From Sulfurovum sp. UBA7648 (GTDB lineage Bacteria > Campylobacterota > Campylobacteria > Campylobacterales > Sulfurovaceae): DNA of 64,000 nucleotides. Position numbers and translations under genes: made by a program. Below the pieces are notes generated by a model. It was not told where the DNA came from, did no database searches, and was given only the letters and a program-made list of their open reading frames with translations. The stretch covers positions 322,432 to 386,431 of the forward strand of contig DLIG01000021.1 in the NCBI GenBank assembly GCA_002483605.1, given 5' to 3'. Positions within the stretch are counted from its first letter, which is position 1. Every line of letters begins with the position of its first letter. Shown here one piece after another: positions 2,791 through 24,437 of this stretch.

Positions 2791-4308
2791 TTATAGTGAA
2801 TAATCTTTTCTAGGCGGTTTTCCGCCGCTTTTATTTGGCTTGGATGAAGATCTTTGGTTGCGATCATTTCTAGGCCTGTCATCTCTTCTTCGCTCACCGC
2901 CTCTATCATCTCTTGATCTGTTAAATGACGGTTTGCCTCTGCCGTGTCTGTTTCTTCTGTTTCTGTCATCATTCCTAGCCATTGCTTTTTGAAGAAGTCT
3001 CTCTACGTCCTCAGCTTTGAATCCGATCTTTTCTTTGCCTTTGATCTCTTGTTTTTCAAGCATCATAGAAGCAAGCATATGAGCGATCGCTACGATATCT
3101 ATCTCGTGTTGAAGAGTTTTAACGATCTCGATAGCATGTTCACTGATCTGGGTTGCAGAAATTTGAGCTATCAGTTCGTCTTGTTTGCTGGATTGTACTT
3201 CACTTCTGCTTGGTATTGATTGTGTTACCATTTTTGTACCTACATCTTTTTCGATGCGTTTTATGGTACGAAGTTCATTCGGGCTTACAAGCGTGATAGC
3301 TTCACCGCTTTTACCGCCGCGTCCTGTTCTGCCGATTCTATGTACATAGCTCTCGCTGTCAAACGGCATATGGTAGTTAAATACATGGCTTACGTCATTT
3401 ACGTCAAGTCCACGCGCTGCAACGTCAGTGGCTACAAATATATCTACCGTGCCGCTTTTAAAACCCCTGATGGCAACTTCTCTTTGTCTTTGCTCCATAT
3501 CGCCATGAAGGACGCTTACTTTGAAGCCTTGTGATGTTAGATGGCTTGCAAGGCGGTCAACCTCTTTTTTCATACGGCAAAATATGATACATTTAGTAGG
3601 GTTTTTATAATCTATCAAACGCACCAACGCATCATCTCTTTCGTGCTCTTCTACCACATAGTAATGTTGGGTTATCAAGGTATTTGTGCTTTCGCTTTTT
3701 GTGATAGCAACTGTTTTAGGATCTTTTAGGATCTTTTCAGCAAGTTTGCGGATTTGTGGAGGCATAGTAGCCGAGAACATCAGGGTTTGTCTATCTTCGC
3801 TTTGGATAAGTTCAAAAATAGCAGTTATTTCGTCCAAAAAGCCCATGTCTAGCATCTCATCTGCTTCGTCAAGGACTACAAATTTTGGAGCCAGTTTGAT
3901 CCTGCCGCCTTGTAGCAAATCTTGCAAACGGCCTGGAGTAGCTACAACTACGCTGGCTTGTTTTATACGTTCTATTTGTTTGTCATATGATGTACCACCA
4001 TATACGGTAGCTGTTTTAAGGCCTGAATTTTTACCGAAACGATAGATCTCGTCGCTTACTTGCATAGCAAGCTCACGGGTAGGGACGATGATAAGACCTT
4101 CTACTGAGCCATCACCGTTCATCATATTTAGCATCGGCAAACCAAATGCTGCAGTTTTGCCTGTACCTGTTTGAGCTTGGGCTATGATATCATGTCCTGC
4201 AAGTATCAAAGGAATAGCTTCTTTTTGTACCGGGCTTGGCTCAGTAAAACCGGCTTCGTCTATGGCTTGTTGGATAGGTTGTTTTAGATTAAAATCTTTA
4301 AATGTCAT
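2791..4308 (-). CDS. DEAD-box ATP-dependent RNA helicase with an Arg/Asp/Asn-rich basic C-terminal tail
   Basis: Q motif (GFTEPSPVQ), AQTGTGKT (I), VLDEADEML (II), SAT (III) and HRIGRTGRGG (VI) are all present. The C-terminal tail is low-complexity (RNDDRNRRNRHGRG...). Confidence 0.93.
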   Translation of the reverse strand: MTFKDFNLKQPIQQAIDEAGFTEPSPVQKEAIPLILAGHDIIAQAQTGTGKTAAFGLPMLNMMNGDGSVEGLIIVPTRELAMQVSDEIYRFGKNSGLKTATVYGGTSYDKQIERIKQASVVVATPGRLQDLLQGGRIKLAPKFVVLDEADEMLDMGFLDEITAIFELIQSEDRQTLMFSATMPPQIRKLAEKILKDPKTVAITKSESTNTLITQHYYVVEEHERDDALVRLIDYKNPTKCIIFCRMKKEVDRLASHLTSQGFKVSVLHGDMEQRQREVAIRGFKSGTVDIFVATDVAARGLDVNDVSHVFNYHMPFDSESYVHRIGRTGRGGKSGEAITLVSPNELRTIKRIEKDVGTKMVTQSIPSRSEVQSSKQDELIAQISATQISEHAIEIVKTLQHEIDIVAIAHMLASMMLEKQEIKGKEKIGFKAEDVERLLQKAMARNDDRNRRNRHGRGKPSFNRSRDDRGGERRRDDRPRNDRNQRSSSKPNKSGGKPPRKDYSL

Positions 4309-4679
4309 TTTGTTCTTTCTGTTTTTATTTTCTATAAATATCTAGTTTTGTCATCTGAATTAGCTTTTGTTATTGTTTAAGCTCGATTGTTATTGAATTT
4401 TGATCCAAAATCTCTTTTAGATCCCTAACTAATTCAGTCTGAAAGTATTAACGCAAACCAAATCTATTGTAGAATCTATATTTAATCAGATGAATTGATT
4501 AAATTTTGTAGAAGTATCACTATTATAGCATAATTTGCTGAATATTAGGAATGTGTCGTTTGTAATGGTAAATCATTTTTTATTTAAATCAAAATAATTT
4601 TTATTTTTTATTTTATTACCTATTTATAGTTTTTAAGATAAAATTTATGACCTTAATATAATAATGGGACATTTGGTTT

Positions 4680-6221
4680 ATGGCAAAAGAAAAAAAAGTG
4701 GAAGAATTGCTAGAAGTTGCTCTATGGAAAGCGGCCGATAAGTTAAGAAAAAATATAGATGCGGCAGAGTATAAACATGTCGTACTCGGGCTTGTATTTC
4801 TCAAATACATCTCAGACAGCTTTGAAGAGGTTTACAATCAACTCTTGGAAGAAATTGATGATGGAGCAGATCCGGAAGATAAAGACGAATATAAAGCCCA
4901 AAACTGCTTTTTCGTGCCGCCAAATGCCAGATGGAATCACCTTCTATCAAATGCCAAACAGCCGCATATCGGCAAAATCGTCGATGAGGCGATGGATGAG
5001 ATCGAGAGAGAAAATCCGTCACTAAAAGGAGTTTTGCCAAAAGTCTATGCCAGAGATAATCTAGATAGCAAATCACTAGGTGAGCTTATCGATCTTATTG
5101 GCAATATCGCTCTTGGCGATGCAAAAGCCAGAAGTGCTGATGTGCTGGGTCATGTGTTTGAATACTTCCTGGGTGAATTTGCCCTAGCAGAAGGCAAGCA
5201 GGGTGGACAGTTCTATACTCCCAAAAGTGTTGTTGAACTTCTAGTAAGTATGCTAGCTCCGTATAACGGAAGGGTGTTTGATCCGTGCTGCGGAAGCGGC
5301 GGGATGTTCGTACAGAGTGAAAAGTTTGTATTGGAACATCAGGGTAAAATTAACGATATTTCCATCTACGGACAAGAATCAAACCAAACTACATGGCGGC
5401 TATGTAAAATGAACCTTGCCATCCGTGGGATAGATTCAAGTCAAGTCAAATGGAATAGTGAAGGTTCATTTCTAAACGACGCCCATAAAGACCTCAAAGC
5501 AGACCTTATCATCGCTAACCCGCCGTTCAATGTAAGCGACTGGAGCGGAGAGTTGCTCCGTAATGATGCCAGATGGAAATTTGGAGTGCCACCTGCGGGT
5601 AACGCCAACTATGCTTGGATACAACATTTCCTCTACCACCTGGCACCTACAGGGCGAGCCGGATTTGTCCTAGCCAAAGGAAGCCTTACTTCTAATACCA
5701 GCGGAGAAGGTGAGATCAGAAAAGCTCTCATCGAAGCCAATCTAGTAGACTGTATCGTCAACCTGCCGGCAAAACTATTTCTCAATACTCAGATCCCAGC
5801 AAGCCTATGGTTTATGAAGCGAGGCAGAACGACGCAAGATATCCTCTTCATAGATGCAAGAAATAAAGGGCATCTTATCAATCGCCGCACAAAAGTGCTA
5901 AGCCATGACGATATCGAAGAGATATCACAAACTTATCATAACTGGAAAACTTTTTCTCGTCATTCCGGACTTGATCCGGAATCCACTTATCAAGACATTA
6001 AAGGCTTTTGCAAGTCGGCATCGTTGGATGAAGTGAGAGCACTCGGTTATGTACTCACCCCTGGAAGATATGTAGGGCTCGAAGAGAGCGAAGATGAGTT
6101 TGATTTTAACGAACGGTTCACATCGCTTCAAAAAGAGCTGCGAGAGCAGATGAGGGAAGAGTCAGCCTTAAATGAACGGATTATCACAAATCTAGCCAAA
6201 ATCAAGGTAGGCGATGAGTAG
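4680..6221 (+). CDS. hsdM: Type I restriction-modification system, DNA methyltransferase subunit M
   Basis: HsdM N-terminal signature LWKAADKLRKNIDAAEYKHVVLGLVFLKYISD, AdoMet motif FDPCCGSGGM and catalytic NPPFN. Confidence 0.95.
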   Translation: MAKEKKVEELLEVALWKAADKLRKNIDAAEYKHVVLGLVFLKYISDSFEEVYNQLLEEIDDGADPEDKDEYKAQNCFFVPPNARWNHLLSNAKQPHIGKIVDEAMDEIERENPSLKGVLPKVYARDNLDSKSLGELIDLIGNIALGDAKARSADVLGHVFEYFLGEFALAEGKQGGQFYTPKSVVELLVSMLAPYNGRVFDPCCGSGGMFVQSEKFVLEHQGKINDISIYGQESNQTTWRLCKMNLAIRGIDSSQVKWNSEGSFLNDAHKDLKADLIIANPPFNVSDWSGELLRNDARWKFGVPPAGNANYAWIQHFLYHLAPTGRAGFVLAKGSLTSNTSGEGEIRKALIEANLVDCIVNLPAKLFLNTQIPASLWFMKRGRTTQDILFIDARNKGHLINRRTKVLSHDDIEEISQTYHNWKTFSRHSGLDPESTYQDIKGFCKSASLDEVRALGYVLTPGRYVGLEESEDEFDFNERFTSLQKELREQMREESALNERIITNLAKIKVGDE

Positions 6222-7356
6222 TTGGAAAGAGTGTAAGTTGGGGGATATTATTTCTTCAAACAATAAAAGTATTGATAAAAACTATGAATTTGAAAATATA
6301 CAATATTTAGATACTGGCTCAATTACAAATAATAAAATAGATGGTTTTCAAGAGTTTAAAATTAGTGAGGCACCAAGTCGAGCAAAAAGACTTGTTAAAC
6401 ATCAAGATATAGTTTACTCTACTGTTAGACCCATTCAAAGGCATTTTGGTTTTATTGAAAATCCAATGGAGAATTTAGTAGTCTCAACCGGTTTTTCAGT
6501 AATTGAAACAAAACAAAAATTAGCTTATCCTAAATTTATATATTATTTTTTATTGTCAAATGAAACGGTAGAGATTTTAGATGTAATTGCCGAAGCTTCA
6601 ACATCTGCTTATCCATCTTTAAAGCCATCTGATATTGAAAATCTTGATATTTCCCTTCCACCCCTTGAAGAACAAAAAGCAATAGCAGAGGTGTTGAGTA
6701 GCCTTGATGATAAGATAGACCTTCTCCACCACCAAAACCATACCCTAGAAGAACTTGCTCAGACGCTTTTTAGGCAGTGGTTTGTTGAAGAAGCAAAAGA
6801 GGAGTGGGAGGACGGAACATTTGGCGAAGTGATTGAAATTTTTGATAATAAGAGAATTCCACTTTCAAAAATGGAACGAGACAAAATGAAAGAAGGGAAA
6901 CTTTATCCATATTATGGGGCTGCACAAATTATGGATTATATTAATGATTTTATCTTTGACGGTGAATATATCTTAATGGGCGAAGATGGCACAGTAAGGA
7001 CTGAAGAAGGTTATCCTATTTTACAATACACAACTGGTAAATTTTGGGTAAATAATCATACTCATGTTTTATTAGCAAAAGAGCCTTACAGTAACTTTTT
7101 TATCTGGAATTATTTGGCAAAGAAAAATATCGATGAGATAGTAACTGGAGCAGTACAGCCAAAAATAAATCAAGGCAATCTGAAATCACTTGATTTTCCT
7201 AAATATCCTTTAGATTTAATTGAAGCTTTTAATGAACAATCACAAGCTTTTTTTGAAAAAATAAACCAAAATAAAAAACAAATCCAAATCCTTGAAAACT
7301 TGCGAGATACGCTTTTGCCAAAGCTTTTGAGTGGGGAAGCTAGGGTGAAAAAATGA
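6214..7356 (+). CDS. hsdS: Type I R-M specificity subunit S (two target recognition domains)
   Basis: 380 aa. It has a central conserved helix (LPPLEEQKAIAEVLSSLDDKIDLLHHQNHTLEELAQTLFRQWF) and a C-terminal conserved helix (ENLRDTLLPKLLSGE). Its start overlaps the hsdM stop by 8 nt. Confidence 0.9.
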   Translation: MSSWKECKLGDIISSNNKSIDKNYEFENIQYLDTGSITNNKIDGFQEFKISEAPSRAKRLVKHQDIVYSTVRPIQRHFGFIENPMENLVVSTGFSVIETKQKLAYPKFIYYFLLSNETVEILDVIAEASTSAYPSLKPSDIENLDISLPPLEEQKAIAEVLSSLDDKIDLLHHQNHTLEELAQTLFRQWFVEEAKEEWEDGTFGEVIEIFDNKRIPLSKMERDKMKEGKLYPYYGAAQIMDYINDFIFDGEYILMGEDGTVRTEEGYPILQYTTGKFWVNNHTHVLLAKEPYSNFFIWNYLAKKNIDEIVTGAVQPKINQGNLKSLDFPKYPLDLIEAFNEQSQAFFEKINQNKKQIQILENLRDTLLPKLLSGEARVKK

Positions 7357-8261
7357 ATTTAAGTATTCAAGATTTTGATTTTCTAGACGCTTTCAGTAAT
7401 TTGGGTAGTTTTACAATAGATCAGTATGGAAAAAATAAACTTGACTTATTTGTTTTAAATATTAATGCAAATGAATTTAATCTAAAAAGATTAGAAGAGT
7501 TATTAATTGATCCAATGATTGATTATTCGCTTTCAAGGAGTGTAAAAGAAGAGTATAAAAGTAGACCTGCAACTCTTACAAAAAAAGCAAAAGAAAAGTT
7601 TATTGATTATGTAAACAATAAAGGGGAATTAGGGGAATTATTGCTTTATTGTTTTTTGGAGACACATCTTAAAGCTCCAAAAATATTGTCAAAACTAGAA
7701 TTAAAAACATCAACAGGTCTTAATGTAAATGGTGCAGATGGAGTACATTTTTTAAAACTTGAAAATGGAAACTATCAGTTAATTTTTGGTGAATCAAAAA
7801 CAATTGTTGGTTTAACTGATGCCCTGACTGATGCTTTTAAATCAATAGATGAATTCAAAAGAGAAGTGAACTCTAAAGGAAATAAAAAAAGTGGCTTACC
7901 CTATGAAAAAAGTCTTATAAGTGACCATCTTAGTAAAGAGACTTTTACACAAGAGGAAAAAGATTTTATTTCAAAAATTGTTTATCCAAAAAAAGAAAAT
8001 GATTTTGAAGTTGATGATGCTTTTGGTATTTTCATAGGTTACGAAATTGCAATAGATGAAGAGGATAAAAAACTACCAAACGAAGATTTTAGAAAAAAAA
8101 TTCAAGAACAAATAAAAAAAGAAGTAGAAAGTAAATTTTCTCATATTACTAAGAAAATCAATGAGTTTAAGTTATATGGACACAGCTTTTATTTATACAT
8201 ATTACCATTAACTGAATTGGATAAGAACAGAGAAGCGATTATGCAGGGACTTCAATCATGA
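7353..8261 (+). CDS. hamA: DUF1837/HamA-like PD-(D/E)xK nuclease (putative Hachiman effector)
   Basis: 302 aa. Contains GELGELLLY, then GADGVHF (D129) and LIFGESKT (E147, K149), giving a D..ExK core. ATGA overlaps link it to the hsdS stop and the hamB start. This is family recognition by eye with no HMM run. Confidence 0.7.
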   Translation: MNLSIQDFDFLDAFSNLGSFTIDQYGKNKLDLFVLNINANEFNLKRLEELLIDPMIDYSLSRSVKEEYKSRPATLTKKAKEKFIDYVNNKGELGELLLYCFLETHLKAPKILSKLELKTSTGLNVNGADGVHFLKLENGNYQLIFGESKTIVGLTDALTDAFKSIDEFKREVNSKGNKKSGLPYEKSLISDHLSKETFTQEEKDFISKIVYPKKENDFEVDDAFGIFIGYEIAIDEEDKKLPNEDFRKKIQEQIKKEVESKFSHITKKINEFKLYGHSFYLYILPLTELDKNREAIMQGLQS

Positions 8262-10819
8262 AATATATAGACGAACTCGCAAAACAAGCTTTGGAAGATA
8301 AATATTTACATGAACTTTTTTTTAAAATAGAGCAGATTCAAGCAGAAACTTTTTTTCAGATAGAGACTCAAAAATTAGATGAAAAAGAATTGTATGACTT
8401 ATTAAGATTTGCAGACATATTATCTCGTTCTGAAATAGATGAAGCTAAAAATAAAGCATACAAAATTATAAGTTTACTGTTTGAAAAATATAGTGATAAT
8501 GCACTACTTCAAACTTTTGCAAACTCCATCATGATAAAACTTGGAAATTTTCCAGCCTTAGGTTTTATTGAAAAATTCTCAAACGCTCAGTCTAAATTAC
8601 CTTATGAAGTATTATATGAAAAGTCATTAAAAGAAGTTTTTCAAAAAATATCCCATAGTGAATTTATTTTTACAGATAGTCAATATCGTATTTTTGAAGC
8701 TTTAAAAAATAGTAATCATTTTAGTTTTTCTGGACCTACTTCTTTGGGCAAATCATTTATCATCAATGCTTTTATTAGGCATTTAATAACAGAACATAGA
8801 GGCACGGATAATCTTGTAATACTTGTTCCGTCTAGGGCATTGATAAATCAAACGGTAAACAGACTAAAGCGAGAGTTTAAAGATGTAAAAAATTACACAA
8901 TTTTAGCTCATCCAAGTGTCCCTACAATGTTCAGAAATGAAAACAGTCAATACATTTTTGTATTTACACCTGAACGACTAATAGCATATCTCTCTAAAAT
9001 AGAGAATCCAAAAATTGATTATTTATTTGTTGATGAAGCACATAAAATTATTGCAATAAAAGATACAAGAAGTCCTTTATATTATCATGCAATTTTGCAA
9101 GCGGAAAGAAAAAGTATTAAGCTGTTTTTTGCTTCTCCAAATGTTGAAAATCCTGAAATATTTTTACAGTTGTTTGAAAAAAGTCAAGACGAAAATATTG
9201 TCATTAAATCTTCACCTGTTGCTCAGAATAGATATTTTTTAGATTTGGTTGAAAATAAGTGCTTGATGTTTTCAGATTTAGACAAAGATTATAAGTTAGA
9301 TATAAATTTTACCAATAATAATTTCTTCTACTGGTTAAAAAAATTAGGGGATAAAGATAAAAATATAATTTACTGCAACTCAAAAGTAGATACCATTTTC
9401 TATGCTTTAGAATTTTCCACAAATCAACCAATAAAACAATCAAAGCATTTAGAAAGTGTCAAGGAGCTAATAAAAGAATATTTACACGATAAGTATTATT
9501 TAATTGATTGTTTAGATAGAGGTATAGCATTTCATTTTGGTAATCTTCCCCAGTTGATTCGAGAGAAAATAGAATGGCTTTTTGAAGAAAAAGAAATAGA
9601 CTATTTATTTTGCACATCAACTTTACTTGAAGGTGTAAATCTCCCTGCAAAAAATATTTTTATACTTGCTAATCAAATTGGATTATCAAAATTTACGGAT
9701 GTTGATTTTTGGAATCTTGCAGGTAGGGCTGGAAGAATGACAAAAGAGATGTCTGGTAATATAATTTGCATGAGAGCACAAGAAAATAAATGGAAGAATC
9801 AAAAAGAAGATTTAGAAGCTGTTAGAAATAAAAGTGTAAAGCCATTTGAACCGCTAATGATAAAGGGACAAAATAACTTTTTTAAAAACATTGAAGCATC
9901 TTTAACAAATAAAGATTTTTCAAACAAATCATCATCACAACCTGAAAAAGATATATGGAATTACTATGCTAATTTGATTCTAATACATGAGATAAAACAA
10001 GATGATTCTGTTTTAAGAACAAATTTTATTACAAAAAATAAAAATGCTTTAAAAATTTTACAAGAACAAAAAAAGAAAATTTCAGTACCTGAAAAAATCT
10101 TATCTGCATCATCTATGATAAAACCTAAATATCAAAATGATATATATCAAAGTTCAGATATACAAATATTGCCTTCTGATTTTAATTATGATGCAATTGT
10201 TATCGTATTGAAAAATTTAGCAAAATACTACAATTGGGAAAATGAAGAAAATGGTGGTAAAAATCCACTTTACAAGCCTTCTGAAAAAATAAAATATTAT
10301 GCTGTTTTGATGGATAGTTGGATGAAATCAAAGCCTTTAAAAATGATTATCGCCAATACAATTAATTACTATAAAGATAAAGAAAAAATTTGGGAAAATG
10401 GAAACTATGTTTCGTTTGATTACAAAAACAAACATGACATTAATAAAATTATTAATTTAGTTATCTCTGATATAGATAATATTTTGAGATTTAAGCTGAA
10501 AAACTATTTTGAAAATTATTATACATTATTAAAAGAAAAATTTGGTGTGCAAAATGCCGGTGCGAATTGGGCTGATTATTTGGAATATGGTACAACTGAT
10601 AATAAAGTAATTGAATTACAGAATATTGGTATTGCAAGGCATTTGGCTCAACATATTTTAGATAATCATGAAGATTGTTTGTTGTTTGAAAATAACTTAT
10701 TACAATCAGTGGATAAAAATAAATTGTATCAAGATTTTGATGTTGAATCTAATTTATATAGTGAATTTTGTGAGCTGTTTGGATTTGATTTAAGTAATAA
10801 AATAGGTGATAAAAAATGA
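8258..10819 (+). CDS. hamB: SF2 DEAD/DEAH-box helicase, HamB-like (putative Hachiman sensor/helicase)
   Basis: 853 aa. Motifs seen are GPTSLGKS (I), TPER (Ib), FVDEAHKI (II), FASPN (III), LLEGVNLP (V) and NLAGRAGR (VI). It sits immediately downstream of, and is translationally coupled to, the DUF1837-like ORF. Confidence 0.75.
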   Translation: MKYIDELAKQALEDKYLHELFFKIEQIQAETFFQIETQKLDEKELYDLLRFADILSRSEIDEAKNKAYKIISLLFEKYSDNALLQTFANSIMIKLGNFPALGFIEKFSNAQSKLPYEVLYEKSLKEVFQKISHSEFIFTDSQYRIFEALKNSNHFSFSGPTSLGKSFIINAFIRHLITEHRGTDNLVILVPSRALINQTVNRLKREFKDVKNYTILAHPSVPTMFRNENSQYIFVFTPERLIAYLSKIENPKIDYLFVDEAHKIIAIKDTRSPLYYHAILQAERKSIKLFFASPNVENPEIFLQLFEKSQDENIVIKSSPVAQNRYFLDLVENKCLMFSDLDKDYKLDINFTNNNFFYWLKKLGDKDKNIIYCNSKVDTIFYALEFSTNQPIKQSKHLESVKELIKEYLHDKYYLIDCLDRGIAFHFGNLPQLIREKIEWLFEEKEIDYLFCTSTLLEGVNLPAKNIFILANQIGLSKFTDVDFWNLAGRAGRMTKEMSGNIICMRAQENKWKNQKEDLEAVRNKSVKPFEPLMIKGQNNFFKNIEASLTNKDFSNKSSSQPEKDIWNYYANLILIHEIKQDDSVLRTNFITKNKNALKILQEQKKKISVPEKILSASSMIKPKYQNDIYQSSDIQILPSDFNYDAIVIVLKNLAKYYNWENEENGGKNPLYKPSEKIKYYAVLMDSWMKSKPLKMIIANTINYYKDKEKIWENGNYVSFDYKNKHDINKIINLVISDIDNILRFKLKNYFENYYTLLKEKFGVQNAGANWADYLEYGTTDNKVIELQNIGIARHLAQHILDNHEDCLLFENNLLQSVDKNKLYQDFDVESNLYSEFCELFGFDLSNKIGDKK

Positions 10820-10905
10820 CCAAACATCCAACACCATCAATCATCAGCGGACAAAAGCCATTTGTTGGAAAAAATGCAACAGTTTTAAAAGGTAACATAA
10901 AATGA
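10816..10905 (+). CDS. 29-codon bridging small ORF (MTKHPTPSIISGQKPFVGKNATVLKGNIK), hypothetical
   Basis: Its ATG overlaps the hamB TGA (ATGA at 10816-10819) and its TGA overlaps the hsdR ATG (ATGA at 10902-10905). It is below the ORF-track size cutoff. Whether it codes for a peptide or only mediates coupling is unknown. Confidence 0.3.
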   Translation: MTKHPTPSIISGQKPFVGKNATVLKGNIK

Positions 10906-13900
10906 CCAAAATAACCGAAAACGAAATAGAACTTTTCGCCATAGAACTTTTGGAAAAACTGGGATACAGTTATATATACGCTCCTGAGATGGAGAGAAAC
11001 TTCGATGAAGTAATTCTCAAAGACAGACTGCTAGACTCCATGCTCAAGATCAATCATGCTCTGCCTCATAATGTCATCGAAGATGCCATCAAACAGGTTG
11101 AACGCACAAGATCTAGTGAACTATTAACCGATAATGAAACATTTCATAAACTGCTGATCGAAGGCGTGAAAGTCGATATCCAAAAAGACGGCACCACGAG
11201 AGGCGAGTTGGTAAAACTGATAGATTTTGATGATATTGGCAATAACGACTTTGTAGCGGCAAATCAGTTTACTATCATCGAAAATGGGCAAAATAAAAGA
11301 CCGGATATCATCCTATTCATCAATGGTTTGCCTTTAGTGGTTATCGAGCTTAAAAACGCCGTTGATGAAAACGCCACGATCCGATCTGCCCATAACCAAA
11401 TAGGCACTTATAAATCCCTCATTCCTTCGCTTTTTACCTATAATGCATTTTGTGTCATCAGTGACGGGCACGAGGCAAAAGCAGGGACTATAAGTGCTGG
11501 ACTCAGCCGTTATATGGCATGGAAAAGCAGTGACGGGATAAACGAAGATTCCAAGCTCATCCCTCAGCTTGAAACACTTATAAATGGGATGCTAAATCCT
11601 CTGGTATTACTAGACTTGGTACGAAGTTTTATCGTTTTTGAGAAATCTAAAAAAGAGGATAAAAACGGCATCGTAACTATCGAGACAGTCAAAAAGCTTG
11701 CCGCGTATCATCAGTACTACGCAGTAAATAAAGCAGTGCAAAGAACAATAATGGCAAGCAGTGAAGGCGGAGATAAAAAAGGCGGCGTAGTGTGGCATAC
11801 TCAAGGAAGCGGAAAGTCGCTTTCTATGGTATTTTATACCGGCAAGATCGTATTGGCTCTCAATAATCCTACGGTAATTGTGATAACCGATAGAAATGAT
11901 CTGGATGATCAACTCTTTGATACATTTGCGGCTTCAACCGGACTGCTTCGTCAAGAACCGGTGCAGGTAGAAAATAGAGAAGATCTAAAACAAAAATTAA
12001 AAGTGGCAAGCGGTGGTGTGATATTTACCACTATTCAAAAGTTTTCTCCACAAGAGGGAAATGTCTATGATATGCTTTCCGATAGGCGTAATATCGTAGT
12101 CATCGCCGATGAAGCGCACCGCACGCAATACGGCTTTAAAGCAAAGGTAGATAAAGATACCGGAGAGATAAAATACGGTTTTGCAAAATATCTGCGAGAT
12201 GCGCTGCCTAATGCCACATATCTTGGATTTACTGGAACTCCGATAGAGAGTACGGACGTAAATACTCCTGCCGTGTTTGGAAACTATGTAGATATCTATG
12301 ATATATCTCAAGCAGTAGAAGACGGCGCGACGGTAAAGATATACTATGAGAGCCGACTTGCTAAAATCAACCTAAGCAATGAAGGCAAAGAGCTGGTACG
12401 CGAGCTTGACGATGAGCTCTCGGGTGAAAATCTGGATGATATGCAAAAAGCAAAAGCCAAATGGACAAAACTCGAAGCTTTGATAGGCAGTAAGAATCGA
12501 ATAAAAGAGATAGCAAGAGATATCGTGACTCATTTTGAGGCCAGAGAAGAAGTCTTTGACGGTAAAGGGATGATAGTCGCTATGAGCAGAAGAATCGCTG
12601 TGGAGCTTTATAATGAGATCATTGCTTTGCGGCCTGCTTGGCATAACGACGATCTTGCCAAAGGCGTTATCAAAGTCGTCATGACAGCAAGCAGTTCTGA
12701 TGGAGCCGTAATGGCAAAACACCATACCACAAAAGAGCAAAGACGCGCTTTGGCAAACAGGATGAAAGATGACAATGATGAACTGCGCCTTGTCATCGTT
12801 CGCGATATGTGGCTGACCGGGTTTGATGCTCCTTCGATGCACACGCTTTATATCGATAAGCCAATGAAGGGTCATAATCTCATGCAGGCAATCGCCAGGG
12901 TAAATAGAGTTTATAAAGATAAACCGGGCGGTCTGGTGGTGGATTATCTTGGCATTGCCAGCGATCTTAAAAAGGCTCTCTCGTTTTACAGTGATAGCGG
13001 AGGCAAAGGTGATCCTGCGCTTGCGCAAGAGAAGGCAGTAGCACTTATGCTTGAAAAGCTTGAAGTGGTATCGCAGATGTATCATGGGTTTGCTTATGAG
13101 CGATATTTCGGGCTTGATACCAGAGGGAAACTCTCTCTTATATTGGAGGCTGAAGAGCATATATTATCGCTTGAAGACGGCAAAAAAAGGTATATTGAAG
13201 AAGTTACGGCGCTCTCAAGTGCTTTTGCCATAGCAATACCTGATGACAAGGCCATGGATGCAAAAGATGAAATAGCTTTTTTTCAAGCAGTGAAAGCAAG
13301 GCTGACAAAATTTGAAAGCTCAAATGCTATAAGCGACGAAGAGATAGAAACAACCATAAGACAGGTTATCGATAAAGCGCTGGTAACTGATCAGGTGATA
13401 GATATATTTGATGCGAGCGGTATCAAAAAGCCTGATATTTCTATACTATCTGAAGAGTTTTTGATGGAAGTCAAAAATATGAAGCATAAAAATATAGCTT
13501 TGGAAGTTTTAAAAAAACTTCTTAATGACGAGATAAAAACAAGATCAAAAACAAATTTTATTCAAAGCCAGAGCCTCATGGAAATGCTTGAAAATTCCAT
13601 AAGAAAATATCACAATAAAATCATCACCGCAGTTGAAGTGATAGATGAGCTTATAAGTCTAAGCCGTGATATTAAAATAATGGATAAAGAGCCATCTGAG
13701 CTTGGACTTACTGAATTTGAATATGCATTTTACACGGCAGTGGCAAACAATGAAAGCGCACAAGAGCTGATGGGTAAAGAAAAACTCAGGGAACTAGCTG
13801 TGGTACTTTTTGAAAAGGTAAAAGAAAATGCAAGTATAGACTGGACTATCAAAGAGAGTGTCAGATCCAAACTCAAAATCGCAGTAAAAAGAACACTCAG

Positions 13901-13991
13901 ACAATTTGGCTATCCGCCGGATATGCAAGCCCTTGCGACCGATACTGTTTTGAAGCAAGCTGAGATGATAGCAAGTGAGTTGACACAATAA
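10902..13991 (+). CDS. hsdR: Type I restriction endonuclease subunit R
   Basis: 1029 aa. N-terminal nuclease motif RPDIILFINGLPLVVIELK, helicase motifs WHTQGSGKSLSM (I) and IADEAHRTQ (II, DEAH), plus TGFDAP and QAIARVNR. Confidence 0.95.
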   Translation: MTKITENEIELFAIELLEKLGYSYIYAPEMERNFDEVILKDRLLDSMLKINHALPHNVIEDAIKQVERTRSSELLTDNETFHKLLIEGVKVDIQKDGTTRGELVKLIDFDDIGNNDFVAANQFTIIENGQNKRPDIILFINGLPLVVIELKNAVDENATIRSAHNQIGTYKSLIPSLFTYNAFCVISDGHEAKAGTISAGLSRYMAWKSSDGINEDSKLIPQLETLINGMLNPLVLLDLVRSFIVFEKSKKEDKNGIVTIETVKKLAAYHQYYAVNKAVQRTIMASSEGGDKKGGVVWHTQGSGKSLSMVFYTGKIVLALNNPTVIVITDRNDLDDQLFDTFAASTGLLRQEPVQVENREDLKQKLKVASGGVIFTTIQKFSPQEGNVYDMLSDRRNIVVIADEAHRTQYGFKAKVDKDTGEIKYGFAKYLRDALPNATYLGFTGTPIESTDVNTPAVFGNYVDIYDISQAVEDGATVKIYYESRLAKINLSNEGKELVRELDDELSGENLDDMQKAKAKWTKLEALIGSKNRIKEIARDIVTHFEAREEVFDGKGMIVAMSRRIAVELYNEIIALRPAWHNDDLAKGVIKVVMTASSSDGAVMAKHHTTKEQRRALANRMKDDNDELRLVIVRDMWLTGFDAPSMHTLYIDKPMKGHNLMQAIARVNRVYKDKPGGLVVDYLGIASDLKKALSFYSDSGGKGDPALAQEKAVALMLEKLEVVSQMYHGFAYERYFGLDTRGKLSLILEAEEHILSLEDGKKRYIEEVTALSSAFAIAIPDDKAMDAKDEIAFFQAVKARLTKFESSNAISDEEIETTIRQVIDKALVTDQVIDIFDASGIKKPDISILSEEFLMEVKNMKHKNIALEVLKKLLNDEIKTRSKTNFIQSQSLMEMLENSIRKYHNKIITAVEVIDELISLSRDIKIMDKEPSELGLTEFEYAFYTAVANNESAQELMGKEKLRELAVVLFEKVKENASIDWTIKESVRSKLKIAVKRTLRQFGYPPDMQALATDTVLKQAEMIASELTQ

Positions 13992-14003
13992 AGAAAAGAA
14001 ACG

Positions 14004-14039
14004 GTGTCAGGTGAAAATGACAACTCTTAGACTCCGTAT
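14004..14039. repeat. Left copy of the direct repeat bracketing the TA cassette (GTGTCAG-N16-TTAGACTCCGTAT)
   Basis: Shares GTGTCAG and TTAGACTCCG(T/C)AT blocks, at nearly identical spacing, with 14600-14637. Confidence 0.5.
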
Positions 14040-14073
14040 CAGTTTGGAATGGCATGATTTTTATTTCAGCAAT

Positions 14074-14325
14074 TCAATACACCTCTTTACGATGTGCGAT
14101 CTTGGATATAAGCATCAGGTTGTTTTCCTGATAAAATATCACTCTGTAATCTCCTATACGCAATCTATAAGCGCCATCAAATGGAGTTTTTAGTTTTTTT
14201 ATCTTGGTAAGTACGGGAGTGTCTGCAAACTCTTCTATGCCGTCGAGTATATCTTTGGCTATAGAAGGGTTAAGTTTTTGCAGCTGTTTTAGTGCCTTTG
14301 GGTCATACTCTATATCATAAGCCAA
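14074..14325 (-). CDS. RelE/ParE family type II toxin
   Basis: 83 aa. The C-terminal half YRLRIGDYRVIFYQENNLMLISKIAHRKEVY is a typical RelE/ParE fold signature. It overlaps the upstream antitoxin gene by 11 nt. Confidence 0.85.
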   Translation of the reverse strand: MAYDIEYDPKALKQLQKLNPSIAKDILDGIEEFADTPVLTKIKKLKTPFDGAYRLRIGDYRVIFYQENNLMLISKIAHRKEVY

Positions 14326-14530
14326 GAGATTTTCTCACATCATCATGTTTCACCGTTTTCAATGTACCCATTTTGTATTCTTGTACAGTTTTGGTGACGG
14401 CATTGTTATCGAAATAATCCTGCAAGGCTTCTCTGATGATCTGAGTCTTTTTTTTGCCATTTTCATTTGCTATAGAATTGAGTTCATCTATGAGGCTCTC
14501 TTCTAGAGTGATAGTCATTTTTTTGGTCAT
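14315..14530 (-). CDS. Ribbon-helix-helix (CopG-like) antitoxin
   Basis: 71 aa. The N-terminus MTITLEESLIDELNSIANENGKKKTQIIREALQDYF has the RHH pattern. It lies upstream of, and overlaps, the toxin gene. Confidence 0.8.
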   Translation of the reverse strand: MTKKMTITLEESLIDELNSIANENGKKKTQIIREALQDYFDNNAVTKTVQEYKMGTLKTVKHDDVRKSLGL

Positions 14531-14547
14531 GAATTACCTTTGATTTA

Positions 14548-14576
14548 TTTACCATACTTTACCATACTTTTATATA
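14548..14576 (-). promoter_or_regulatory. Candidate TA operator/promoter: tandem ACCATACTTT x2 next to TATATA
   Basis: Exact 10-nt tandem repeat at 14551-14570, about 20-40 nt upstream of the antitoxin ATG on the minus strand, followed by TATATA at 14571-14576. RHH antitoxins typically bind repeated operators. Confidence 0.45.
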
Positions 14577-14599
14577 CAAAGTCAAGACCAAAACTTAAA

Positions 14600-14637
14600 G
14601 TGTCAGCCGTTGAATCTCCACTTTTTAGACTCCGCAT
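14600..14637. repeat. Right copy of the direct repeat bracketing the TA cassette (GTGTCAG-N18-TTAGACTCCGCAT)
   Basis: See 14004-14039. The two copies lie 596 bp apart and enclose only the relE/RHH pair. Confidence 0.5.
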
Positions 14638-14665
14638 TAAGTACAGAGTGACAAAACGAGTGGAT

Positions 14666-14690
14666 TACTGTCTTCACGGAAATGACAGTA
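14666..14690. repeat. Hairpin TACTGTC-N11-GACAGTA, possibly a degenerate REP-like unit
   Basis: 7-bp perfect inverted repeat. The reverse complement reads GTCATTTCCGTGAAGAC, which resembles the GTCAT..GAA..TTC repeat family seen elsewhere in the window. Confidence 0.3.
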
Positions 14691-14829
14691 GGAGCGCCGA
14701 CGTGGTTTACTTTTTGTAATACTCTTAGCGCTTGAAATCACAAAAGCTTTAAGGCATTGAATTTTGACAAATATTATAAGTGCAAACATATTGTAAAATC
14801 TAAATTTGGTCAGACAAATTTATTGAATT

Positions 14830-21444: not shown

Positions 21445-22617
21445 TTAAATTGTTCTTCTAAACTCAGGATAAGACTCAATACCGCATTCGCTTGCATCTA
21501 ATCCTTCAAGCTGGGCATCGTCTGATGCTCTAAAGGCCATTATTTTATTGATAGCATAAATTATGGCATAAGAGACGGCAAATACAGATATTCCAATTAT
21601 TGCTATGCCTTTGATCTGGCCCATGAGTGTGATCGTCTCATTGCCGGCAAACAATCCGACAGCAAATGTCCCCCATATGCCGTTTATCAAGTGAACAGAC
21701 AAAGCCCCCACCGGATCATCTATACGAACTTTATCAAACAGAGGAACGGCGATCACCACCAGTATTCCTCCAATTCCTCCAATGATAAGTGAATTTAAAG
21801 TATCATACAGGTCTGCACCGGCAGTGATGGCTACAAGTCCTCCTAATGCACCATTTAGTATCATGGTAATATCAAAGAGTTTGTATCTAAGGTATATAAA
21901 GATGCCGGCAGTAAGTGCTCCGGCAAGTCCTGCTGTGTTTGTATTAAAAATTGTAAGTGCTACCGTATCGGCTGCTTCCTTGGAAGCAATATTTCCCACT
22001 GATCCGCCGTTAAAACCAAACCAGCCTATCCAAAGCAATAATGCTCCAAGTGTAACAAGAGGTATATTGGAAGCAGGTATTACTTTTATCTGGTCATTTA
22101 CATATCTGCCTTTTCTTGAACCAATAATCAAGATAGCAGCAAGAAGTGCCCAGCCGCCGGTTGAGTGTATCACGGTTGAGCCAGCAAGGTCATGCATATT
22201 TAGATCAAGAACAGTGTCTTTTAAGATATCGCCGCCCCAAGAAATATTTACGACAAAAGGATAGATCAATGCACCCATAATAACAGTAAATAAGGTCAGT
22301 GGAAATATTTTGGCTCTTTCGCCGACACCTCCGCTCATAATATTGATAGCTTTTCCTACAAAAGCCATCTGAAACATTATAAATGCCAAGGGATTCATAG
22401 TACTAATTTGAATATCGCCAAAAGCAATTTGAAAACCGATCAATATAAATGAAATAGAAGCAACCACATATATCATAATATTGACTGTAAGTACGCTGGT
22501 AACATTTTTTGTTCTCACAATTCCGGCTTCAAGCATGGCAAAACCGGGCACCATGAATATGATCAAAGTCATTGCAAATAGTGTAAAAAGCGTATTGATA
22601 ATATAAGCATCAGCCAT
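21445..22617 (-). CDS. amt: Ammonium transporter
   Basis: 390-aa polytopic protein. It has Amt signatures FAMLEAG, HDLAGSTVIHSTGGW, WFGFNGGS and SVHLINGIWGT. Confidence 0.92.
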   Translation of the reverse strand: MADAYIINTLFTLFAMTLIIFMVPGFAMLEAGIVRTKNVTSVLTVNIMIYVVASISFILIGFQIAFGDIQISTMNPLAFIMFQMAFVGKAINIMSGGVGERAKIFPLTLFTVIMGALIYPFVVNISWGGDILKDTVLDLNMHDLAGSTVIHSTGGWALLAAILIIGSRKGRYVNDQIKVIPASNIPLVTLGALLLWIGWFGFNGGSVGNIASKEAADTVALTIFNTNTAGLAGALTAGIFIYLRYKLFDITMILNGALGGLVAITAGADLYDTLNSLIIGGIGGILVVIAVPLFDKVRIDDPVGALSVHLINGIWGTFAVGLFAGNETITLMGQIKGIAIIGISVFAVSYAIIYAINKIMAFRASDDAQLEGLDASECGIESYPEFRRTI

Positions 22618-22716
22618 TAAATTGCCTTTTTTGCATAAAAATATGGCTAAATTATATCATTTTAATGGGACAATAAAATGCAGCTATTGCTTATTTTTTA
22701 GACAGTACTTTATTAT

Positions 22717-23376
22717 TTAGTATGCAAATTTATAGCCGCGACGACGAACGGTATGTATAACTTGAAACCCTAATATATTTTTAAGGCGTTTACGAATTTG
22801 ATTTATAGCTACTTCAACTGTGTTGTCACTGACATATTCAGGCTCTTCCCAGAGAGCATTGATGATCTCGTCTTTGGAAAAAACTCTCTGTTTACGCAAG
22901 GCAAGATAAGCTAAGATATCAAATGTCTTGCCGTTAAGTGAGACATTTTTTTGATTGTATTCTATTTTTTTGTTTGCGATGTCTATGACTAATTGGCCTA
23001 TATTGATAGTGGTGCCAAAAAGATGGCGCATATTAGCCAACACTCTAGCTGCGATCAGATCAGGATGCTCACAGTGATGACATATAACATCATCAGCCCC
23101 TAGATTGAAAAAAACACCTTGTGTTTTTGGATTTGTGGCTAGTACTATGATCTTAGTTTCATTCTTTTTGCGTTTGACTTCGTTTATATATCTTTCAAGT
23201 GAAAATTTAACGCCTTCGTCAACTACGATAACTAATTCGTAGTGTCTAAAATCTGTAAAATTAGTAGCATCATACAAATCTTTTGCACTATCAACTATAC
23301 AAATAAAATATTTGCTTAGTTCTGATTCAAGTTTTTTGACATATTCATCATTAAAACCTATGGTTAGTATTCTCAT
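22717..23376 (-). CDS. OmpR-family response regulator, atypical/orphan (HP1043/CosR-like)
   Basis: Winged-helix C-terminus WEEPEYVSDNTVEVAINQIRKRL...TVRRRGYKF. The receiver keeps D53 (LVIVVDEG) but lacks the conserved beta5 Lys-Pro (GADDVICHHCEHP). No kinase gene is nearby. Confidence 0.75.
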   Translation of the reverse strand: MRILTIGFNDEYVKKLESELSKYFICIVDSAKDLYDATNFTDFRHYELVIVVDEGVKFSLERYINEVKRKKNETKIIVLATNPKTQGVFFNLGADDVICHHCEHPDLIAARVLANMRHLFGTTINIGQLVIDIANKKIEYNQKNVSLNGKTFDILAYLALRKQRVFSKDEIINALWEEPEYVSDNTVEVAINQIRKRLKNILGFQVIHTVRRRGYKFAY

Positions 23377-23534
23377 ATACTCTTATAACCTTGTAAATTA
23401 TCAAAAAGCGTATCATAGTAATAAAATATTATGATATAAATTTTGCTTAATTAATTTTGATAGAGTTATACCAAAAAACACCTTATTTAAAAATAAAAGT
23501 TAATTTTTAGATTTTTTTGCTATTTTATTAAGAA

Positions 23535-24437
23535 TTAATTTTTTACAGCCTTTATGTAGACTCTTTTTGGAGCTGGATAGCCTTCTACTGTAAGATTTGG
23601 ATTTTGGGGATCTAAGAAGTCTTCCAGACTTTGAGAATCGATCCAATCTGTTTTTCTCTGCTCAGTCTTATCGGTAGTTTTAACGGTTAAAACTTCAACA
23701 TCTTTAAAACCTGCTCTATGACACCAGTTTTTTAGAGCATTTATCGTAGGTATAAAATAGATATTAGGAATTTTGGAATACCGTTCAAAGGGGGTAAGGG
23801 CTACATCTTCTTCGCCATCTATCATAAAAGTATCCAAAAAGAGTTCACCGCCGTTTTCTAATCCTTTGTAGAGAGATTTGAGCGTAGCTATAGGGTCTGA
23901 ACGGTGATACAATACTCCTAGACAAAACAATACATCGAATTTATGCTCATACATCCCCAAATGCTCGACGCCTAAAAGCTCATAGGCTATATCGCTTTTG
24001 ATAAAGTGATTGATAAAAGAAAATTGAGTATAAAAAAGAGCAGATGGATCAAAACCTACAAGTTTTTTTGGTTTATGTTTTAACATCCTAAAAAGATAAT
24101 AACCGTTATTGCAGCCTATGTCTCCTACTGTTTTGCCTTCTAAGCTAAAGTAAGGCTCTAAGAGGTTGTATTTTATAAAGCTTTGCCACTCTGTATCGAT
24201 GAACAAAGAGTTTATTTGAAACGGCCCTTTCCTCCACGGTTTCATGGCGCGTGCCAGCGTATCTATTTGATCTTGCCCGTCTTGTTCTAGAGGTTCTGTT
24301 TGAATCGTAATGATATCATCCAAGCTTACAGTTGTTTCATAATTTGGGAGTTTATTGATCTCTTGCCAAAGAGGGGCTATGTCTTTGAAGTTTAGCCATT
24401 TTAGCCTCTCTTGTCGTATGGAGTTAATGTCTGTCAT
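23535..24437 (-). CDS. cmoB: tRNA U34 carboxymethyltransferase CmoB
   Basis: [22 protein letters not shown] and [14 protein letters not shown] closely follow the E. coli CmoB signature blocks. Confidence 0.92.

Follow-up and report, generated by a model that had tools for sequence, protein, structure and literature searches.

The DNA analysed here, a stretch of 64,000 nucleotides from contig DLIG01000021.1 of Sulfurovum sp. UBA7648 (hereafter, the window), carries at positions 7353-10819 two genes, hamA and hamB, that very probably constitute a canonical two-gene Hachiman system of type I-A, captured without a promoter of its own in the hypervariable cargo slot between hsdS and hsdR of a type I restriction-modification (R-M) operon of the Sulfurimonas type. 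A preliminary description had proposed a Hachiman-like nuclease and helicase pair at this site, and the assignment is borne out by full-length profile matches for both proteins and by a structural match for HamA. Both open reading frames (ORFs) were found on the plus strand where they had been placed (7353-8261, 302 aa; 8258-10819, 853 aa), and translation of the two located every quoted motif at its given residue or nucleotide. The octapeptide FVDEAHKI is present as well; the coordinates attached to it, 9032-9043, cover just its DEAH core, whereas the full peptide occupies 9026-9049. The genes of the locus are the following.

hsdM, 4680-6221, plus strand: type I R-M methyltransferase subunit, first gene of the operon (Pfam HsdM_N and N6_Mtase, the latter with 365.8 bits; PADLOC MTase_I, 7.2e-192).
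hsdS, 6214-7356, plus strand: type I specificity subunit with two target-recognition domains (Pfam Methylase_S in two stretches; PADLOC Specificity_I, 1.6e-80).
hamA, 7353-8261, plus strand: 302 aa, DUF1837 only; predicted PD-(D/E)xK-type nuclease with catalytic D129, E147, and K149, the putative Hachiman type I-A effector.
hamB, 8258-10819, plus strand: 853 aa, Ski2/Hel308-like superfamily 2 (SF2) helicase; predicted Hachiman sensor/ATPase.
Small ORF, 10816-10905, plus strand: 29 aa (MTKHPTPSIISGQKPFVGKNATVLKGNIK), filling the spacer between hamB and hsdR (translation; the same ORF is called as a gene in L001, an independent assembly of this locus).
hsdR, 10902-13991, plus strand: type I restriction/translocase subunit, last gene of the operon (PADLOC REase_I, PDLC03040, 1302.8 bits, residues 2-1027; Pfam HSDR_N, SWI2_SNF2, T1R_D3-like, and T1RH-like_C).

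The smaller protein of the pair contains a sole Pfam domain, PF08878 (DUF1837/HamA), which is matched over profile positions 1-230 of 230 with 199.7 bits against a gathering cut-off of 25. It also matches 21 PADLOC HamA models, the top one being HamA1 (PDLC00156, 3.7e-115, residues 6-301). The quoted motifs are GELGELLLY (aa 91-99), GADGVHF (aa 127-133, with D129 at nt 7737-7739), and LIFGESKT (aa 143-150, with E147/K149 at nt 7791-7799). The D..ExK nuclease core that had been read from the last two is present, and its residues D129, E147, and K149 are invariant in both alignments of HamA homologs (20 and 32 sequences, with identity down to 23%); G91, E92, E95, K114, K118, and H132 are likewise invariant in both. 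The AlphaFold2 model of HamA (pLDDT 77.6, pTM 0.77) has only two significant matches among PDB folds, and both are HamA chains: 8VXY_A, the E138A,K140A variant of ECOR31 HamA (E = 5.5e-5, probability 1.00, TM 0.47/0.55), and 8ZUE_A, HamA from E. coli K-12 (fold match probability 1.00). The predicted fold therefore matches solved HamA, one of the checks proposed in the preliminary description. The direct sequence route from the window HamA to 8VX9_A and 8ZUE_A failed both with a single-sequence search and with a 20-sequence profile; because only the fold comparison connects these proteins, the correspondence of E147/K149 to E138/K140 of ECOR31 is drawn from the shared D-ExK motif and not from an explicit alignment.

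HamB matches PADLOC model HamB1 (PDLC00176) with 1073.8 bits (E = 0) over residues 1-840 of 853 and profile positions 1-844 of 845, so the Pfam DUF1837/HamA and PADLOC Hachiman models to which the pair was to be compared are both matched. Scores of this size for the two proteins lie well outside what chance would give. Its best solved counterpart is chain 9WH1_B, the HamB of a trypsin-HamAB, aligned over residues 3-814 with 360 bits. The helicase motifs comprise GPTSLGKS (Walker A with K165, nt 8732-8755), TPER (aa 237-240), DEAH (motif II, aa 259-262, nt 9032-9043), FASPN, LLEGVNLP, and NLAGRAGR, of which AGRAGR corresponds to motif VI. Among 13 HamB homologs from Campylobacterota, Gammaproteobacteria, and other groups, residues G159-S166, E260, A261, K263, and R490-R493 are invariant, and dozens of further invariant columns of the same alignment, which covers several phyla, fall within the N- and C-terminal regions. 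The idea that the ~150 N-terminal and ~330 C-terminal residues could represent lineage-specific extras is contradicted by these columns and by the HamB1 profile match and the 9WH1_B alignment, both of which include the two regions; judged from the alignments, the terminal regions are family-typical. Full-length relatives of HamB (845-862 aa) are found in Sulfurimonas, Sulfuricurvum, Pseudomonas, Vibrio, Clostridia, Bacillota, Bacteroidota, and candidate phyla.

The assignment to subtype I-A follows from a HamA that is DUF1837-only and has an intact D-ExK nuclease site. Type I-A is described as having a DUF1837-only HamA with conserved active-site residues, and constitutes the majority clade with 86% of HamA sequences (PMC11914072). 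In the window, hamA and hamB are adjacent, co-oriented, and in that order. No HamC (DUF3223) gene is found in the cassette region, where the sole other ORF is the small one of 29 aa, and the top PADLOC models are HamA1 and HamB1, which argues for type I rather than type II. Neither an N-terminal fusion on HamA nor a metallo-β-lactamase (MBL) gene nearby was found in the ORF list or with PADLOC and Pfam.

The gene order, the DUF1837-only HamA, and the D-ExK site are shared with HamAB from ECOR31 (PDB ID: 8VX9 and 8VXY; PMC12278908) and from E. coli DEC14B (PMC11914072), as is a HamB that belongs to the Ski2-like SF2 helicases with Walker A, DEAH, and motif VI. ECOR31 HamB differs in size, with 1174 aa against the ~850 aa class of the window protein. 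The closest solved relative is trypsin-HamAB from the Hachiman-trypsin-MBL system (PDB ID: 9WH1, 9WHK, and 9WHU; bioRxiv 10.1101/2025.09.03.673762), whose HamB also has 853 aa. Its HamA is a 528-aa protein with an N-terminal trypsin domain; the C-terminal DUF1837 domain (9WH1_A) aligns with residues 9-300 of the window HamA, but the catalytic D/E/K residues are lost (GFHGAHV and LIHSAAFI at the positions of GADGVHF and LIFGESKT, respectively), and a separate MBL nuclease acts as the effector. The window, in contrast, is without a trypsin domain or a nearby MBL gene and keeps the catalytic residues, which sets it apart from the Hachiman-trypsin-MBL group. By analogy with 8VX9, 8ZUE, and 9WH1, we infer that the two proteins would form a HamA-HamB heterodimer.

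The host operon is a complete type I R-M set: profile searches identify HsdM, HsdS, and HsdR, all encoded in the same orientation, and hsdR scores 631.9 bits against NCBIfam TIGR00348 (cut-off 284.55). The placement of hamAB between hsdS and hsdR in a single co-oriented and translationally coupled gene string stands as first described, with ATGA start/stop overlaps at four junctions (hsdS/hamA; hamA/hamB, 4 nt; hamB/small ORF; small ORF/hsdR). A terminator scan of 4200-14800 returned three terminator-like sites versus 6.1 expected, with none located within 7353-10901. As the stops and starts overlap and no terminator-like sites lie inside the latter interval, hamAB is presumably co-transcribed with hsdMS. 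The promoter scan of the same 4200-14800 region gave 48 promoter-like sites versus 38.5 expected, in AT-rich DNA and with a sigma-70 consensus that is a poor model for Campylobacterota. The base composition of the cassette is foreign to its operon: its G+C content amounts to 27%, versus 44% in hsdM and 41% in hsdR, and at third codon positions to 0.16-0.18 versus 0.39-0.41 in hsdM/hsdR.

Several observations weigh against the assignment to a functional type I-A system within this operon. The pair is only remotely similar to ECOR31 HamAB, which has been characterised biochemically: HamA resembles it only at the fold level (TM 0.47-0.55, 11% identity), and in HamB only the C-terminal RecA lobe matches 8VX9_B, with 37 bits. 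The nearest solved relative, 9WH1, is a variant with another effector (trypsin/MBL), so that activation details may differ; and given this distance from the studied systems, neither the trigger nor the part played by ATP binding, as opposed to hydrolysis, need be the same. For this locus, the defence function of hamAB is predicted from homologs, while we infer co-transcription solely from the gene overlaps and the terminator scan, the promoter scan being uninformative.

The distribution of the cassette was surveyed with a HamB-alignment scan, using one genome per species, which yielded 76 loci. Both hamA and hamB are present in 64 of them; the remainder represent truncated contigs or loci where hamA was not called. 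Most of the 64 hamAB loci have no R-M neighbour, while at least 10 (≥16%) show same-strand linkage to R-M genes. This fraction is a lower bound, as the hsd profiles were seeded from the window proteins and EcoEI-type HsdR was missed until the Pfam run (L018 and L039). The linked loci are listed below.

L005: hamAB after hsdS and before hsdR.
L006: hamAB after hsdS, probably before hsdR; the contig ends.
L024, L026, L031, L032, and L039: hamAB after hsdR.
L018: hamAB at the end of an hsdR...hsdM-hsdS string.
L003 and L004: hamAB immediately after the gene of an MmeI-type enzyme, which it overlaps by 4 nt.

The cassettes closest to that of the window are the stand-alone L002 (87-88% identity) and the MmeI-linked L003 and L004, with HamA about 86-92% and HamB 74-87% identical. 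In L005 and L006, where the cassette is embedded in a type I operon, its identity is only 68-72%, even though the HsdM and HsdR encoded there are ~80% identical to those of the window. Nucleotide homology to L002-L004 starts at the hamA ATG and stops at the hamB stop codon; the mobile unit therefore appears to be a bare two-gene cassette without a promoter region. Because most of its relatives stand alone, the cassette is probably autonomous. Its G+C content in the clade of the window is 0.26-0.28 across all hosts compared. The nearest homologs carry the names Sulfurimonas or Sulfuricurvum. In L003 (2162-8288, a Burkholderiales metagenome-assembled genome) and L004 (6460-12589, Sulfurimonas sp. 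CS5), hamAB is coupled to an R-M enzyme of the MmeI family (type IIG/IIL), followed by an SLFN_AlbA_2/HATPase_c_4 gene. Going by their sequences, these loci would represent a second type of R-M host for a near-identical cassette, which implies transfer across phyla.

The context of the cassette was examined from the side of the operon in ten relatives: nine with HsdR 86-88% identical to that of the window, and L005, with 79%. All ten carry cargo between hsdS and hsdR; no two sets are alike, and some families recur. The cargo of each hsdS-hsdR interval is as follows.

L078: another Hachiman subtype (HamA of 342 aa, HamB of 738 aa), an AAA_15/AAA_21 ATPase, and a 279-aa ORF.
L080: Abi_C, two unassigned ORFs (310 and 98 aa), and Fic/HTH.
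L081: KilA-N and a 44-aa small ORF.
L083: two uncharacterised ORFs (283 and 150 aa).
L084: Y1 transposase, ORF6N, RhuM, and HTH.
L085: two uncharacterised ORFs (265 and 149 aa), ORF6N, a 54-aa ORF, and Bro-N.
L086: NA37, RelA_SpoT, DUF5677, an AAA_15/21 ATPase, and a 276-aa ORF.
L087: KwaA and KwaB (Kiwa) and five unassigned ORFs (277, 307, and 140 aa among them).
L088: a KwaA-like gene, two uncharacterised ORFs (299 and 310 aa), and RhuM/Fic.
L005: hamAB, two uncharacterised ORFs (200 and 271 aa), and Fic/HTH.

The interval between hsdM and hsdS constitutes a second slot, often holding the SLFN_AlbA_2/HATPase_c_4 gene or DUF1016. The position of hamAB between hsdS and hsdR had been regarded as its unusual part; given that each of the ten related operons inspected holds a differing set of cargo there, and that such embedding is already catalogued in the literature, this view has to be abandoned. 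In this operon family an occupied hsdS-hsdR slot is the rule, and the window locus is one more case of a phenomenon already described.

Defence genes within type I R-M loci are known from several organisms. PrrC resides inside the EcoprrI type I locus (PMC12707154), the R-linked rlo/mlo ORFs of Campylobacter jejuni (e.g., RloF) lie between hsdR and hsdS, and TgvAB from Vibrio cholerae is similarly embedded (PMC11411939). The catalogue of Payne et al. (2024) lists 17,432 genes lying within BREX, DISARM, and type I R-M systems, 96.7% of them co-oriented with the host system, and the authors used the embedding for discovery by "guilt-by-embedding" (bioRxiv 10.1101/2024.01.29.577857). Hachiman is unmentioned in the main text and the searched supplements of that study (bioRxiv 10.1101/2024.01.29.577857), and the literature search found no paper on Hachiman specifically within a type I operon. 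As with hamAB of the window, PrrC, RloF, and TgvAB are co-oriented defence cargo between hsdS and hsdR. The window cargo differs in being Hachiman and, unlike PrrC, in belonging to a cassette that occurs mostly outside R-M loci: most of the 64 hamAB loci are without an hsd neighbour and the closest cassette, L002, is stand-alone, which separates it from the guardians of the PrrC/RloC type. A physical link of Hachiman to R-M is also known from Streptococcus thermophilus, where a native 7.2-kb island of Hachiman and type II R-M protects better than Hachiman alone (PMC12322248); there, however, the two systems are adjacent and the R-M is of type II, whereas hamAB in the window interrupts a type I operon.

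Traces of recombination are found in the immediate surroundings of the cassette. The L001 assembly is about 99% identical to the window locus on both sides of the second recognition domain of hsdS and its HamB is 100% identical, but across that domain its hsdS contains unrelated sequence (L001 2538-3008 versus window 6813-7268; HsdS of 385 against 380 aa). By this comparison, the R-M specificity was swapped by recombination beside the cassette, and the region is still recombining. At their 5' ends, the 29-aa small ORF and the 44-aa ORF preceding hsdR in L081 (9874-10008) are alike: 23 of the first 27 nt are identical. In L006, a truncated hsdR-like 5' start (MTKITEN..., MTKITENKTELL...) directly follows hamB at ~12565-12625. 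The small ORF might be left over from the junction or serve as a coupling leader; more tentatively, this ORF and the hsdR-like start of L006 may both be relics of recombination at the hsdS/hsdR junction. The search for a target-site duplication or insertion scar returned similar ends of hsdS and hamB (GGTGAAAAAATGA and GGTGATAAAAAATGA), the occurrence of ATGACCAAA at both 10816 and 10902, and the likeness of the small ORF to L081 over just ~27 nt, all of which are too short to call.

Just downstream of hsdR, the minus strand of the window (14074-14530) encodes a ParE-family toxin (83 aa, PF05016, 2e-10) with an overlapping antitoxin-like ORF of 71 aa, a pair that is shared with L001; the L001 counterpart of the antitoxin-like ORF has weak RHH_1 and DUF6364 matches. 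A link of hamAB to this ParE/RHH toxin-antitoxin pair, modelled on Pez-Ham (PMC13064477), was considered and rejected: the pair lies beyond hsdR, on the opposite strand, and belongs to a different toxin-antitoxin family. Another low-G+C stretch is located at 22500-24000 (0.31-0.33 versus a window mean of 0.365) and contains the minus-strand ORFs 22717-23376 and 23535-24437. The 64-kb window contains no tRNA or tmRNA genes, and no Rfam families at the gathering score.

A mode of action can be proposed by analogy with the characterised systems. In ECOR31, the nuclease mutant E138A/K140A and the helicase mutant D431A both abolish defence (Tuck et al., PMC12278908); the type I-A HamAB of E. coli DEC14B behaves similarly, with E150A/K152A abolishing activity (PMC11914072). 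Both residue pairs, E138/K140 and E150/K152, form the ExK part of the D-ExK motif that is also present in the window HamA. Within the HamA-HamB heterodimer, HamA would be restrained by HamB during the scanning of intact DNA (PMC12278908, PMC11914072). The loading of a free 3' DNA end, or the presence of infection-damaged DNA, would drive the ATPase/helicase of HamB and thereby activate HamA, which might then degrade phage and host DNA indiscriminately, resulting in abortive infection. In the window, hamAB would be co-transcribed with hsdM-hsdS, probably starting at the hsdM promoter, and its translation would be linked to that of hsdS. It could then act as an independent second layer against phages that evade restriction by methylation or with anti-restriction proteins.

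The arrangement in the operon could also be read as a functionally integrated composite of HamAB and type I R-M, in which HsdR-cut ends load HamB, or HamAB is a PrrC-like guardian firing when R-M is inhibited, so that the embedding is mechanistically required. Several features would agree with such a composite, including the tight translational coupling through the ATGA overlaps at hsdS/hamA, hamB/small ORF, and small ORF/hsdR, and the repeated same-strand linkage of this HamAB lineage to R-M (at least 10 of 64 loci, after hsdS, hsdR, or an MmeI-type enzyme). Free DNA ends or DNA damage activate Hachiman (PMC12278908), and restriction would generate such ends; the S. thermophilus island outperforms Hachiman alone (PMC12322248); and in PrrC there is a precedent for a guardian located within a type I locus (PMC12707154). 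Nevertheless, the cassette occurs by itself in most related loci, L002 with its 87-88% identity among them, and where an R-M partner exists, its nature and the position vary (hsdS, hsdR, or MmeI). Unrelated cargo occupies the same slot in sister operons, a pattern expected of a recombination hot spot and not of a co-adapted complex, and the characterised Hachiman systems function alone in heterologous hosts (PMC12278908, PMC11914072). The integrated composite is therefore considered quite improbable. A related proposal treats the junction of the hsdS stop and the hsdR start as a dedicated exchange site for promoterless defence cassettes (cargo in 11 of 11 operons, including the window, and coupled in its translation to hsdS), with Hachiman functionally wired to restriction: ends made by HsdR would load HamB, and the response would be amplified into abortive infection when restriction fails. 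Taken as a whole, this proposal appears unlikely.

It is very hard to regard the cassette as a silent or decaying passenger, i.e., a horizontally acquired remnant whose defence has been lost, even though its foreign third-position G+C and the lack of a promoter region of its own could be taken as signs of such a fate. Both ORFs are of full length and keep all family-invariant residues and helicase motifs, HamB is 100% identical in L001 despite the swapped recognition domain of the neighbouring hsdS, and the HamAB genes of the clade are all low in G+C (0.26-0.28) in the hosts compared, so that the composition characterises the cassette lineage and does not point to decay. Hardly any credence can be given to the view that the helicase is a housekeeping repair enzyme of the Hel308/Ski2 type and the small protein an unrelated nuclease. 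Clustering of the helicase with a housekeeping family had been named in the preliminary description as an outcome that would speak against Hachiman, and the SF2 core does weakly match the helicase domains of Hel308, Ski2, Brr2, and Pol-theta. These matches are limited to the RecA lobes, whereas the HamB models span the entire protein; the score against the NCBIfam Hel308 model (NF040935) is 52.1 bits, far below the curated cut-off of 1200; and hamA is an obligate partner in 64 of 76 loci. The reading as a type I-A Hachiman cassette carried as cargo is thus preferred.

With this result, two genes in the genome of a little-studied or uncultured member of Campylobacterota can be annotated as an intact Hachiman system; the practical value of this is limited. 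A modest further gain is the record of a highly active slot for cargo in type I R-M operons of the Sulfurimonas type. As known defences, namely two Hachiman subtypes, Kiwa, Abi_C, and AAA_15/AAA_21 ATPase-based pairs, lie there beside uncharacterised ORFs, the slot is a convenient place to look for new defence genes with the "guilt-by-embedding" approach of Payne et al.; the uncharacterised slot ORFs of the sister operons and the recurrent SLFN_AlbA_2/HATPase_c_4 gene are candidates for such genes. The slot also provides a natural setting in which to ask whether restriction and Hachiman act additively or synergistically.

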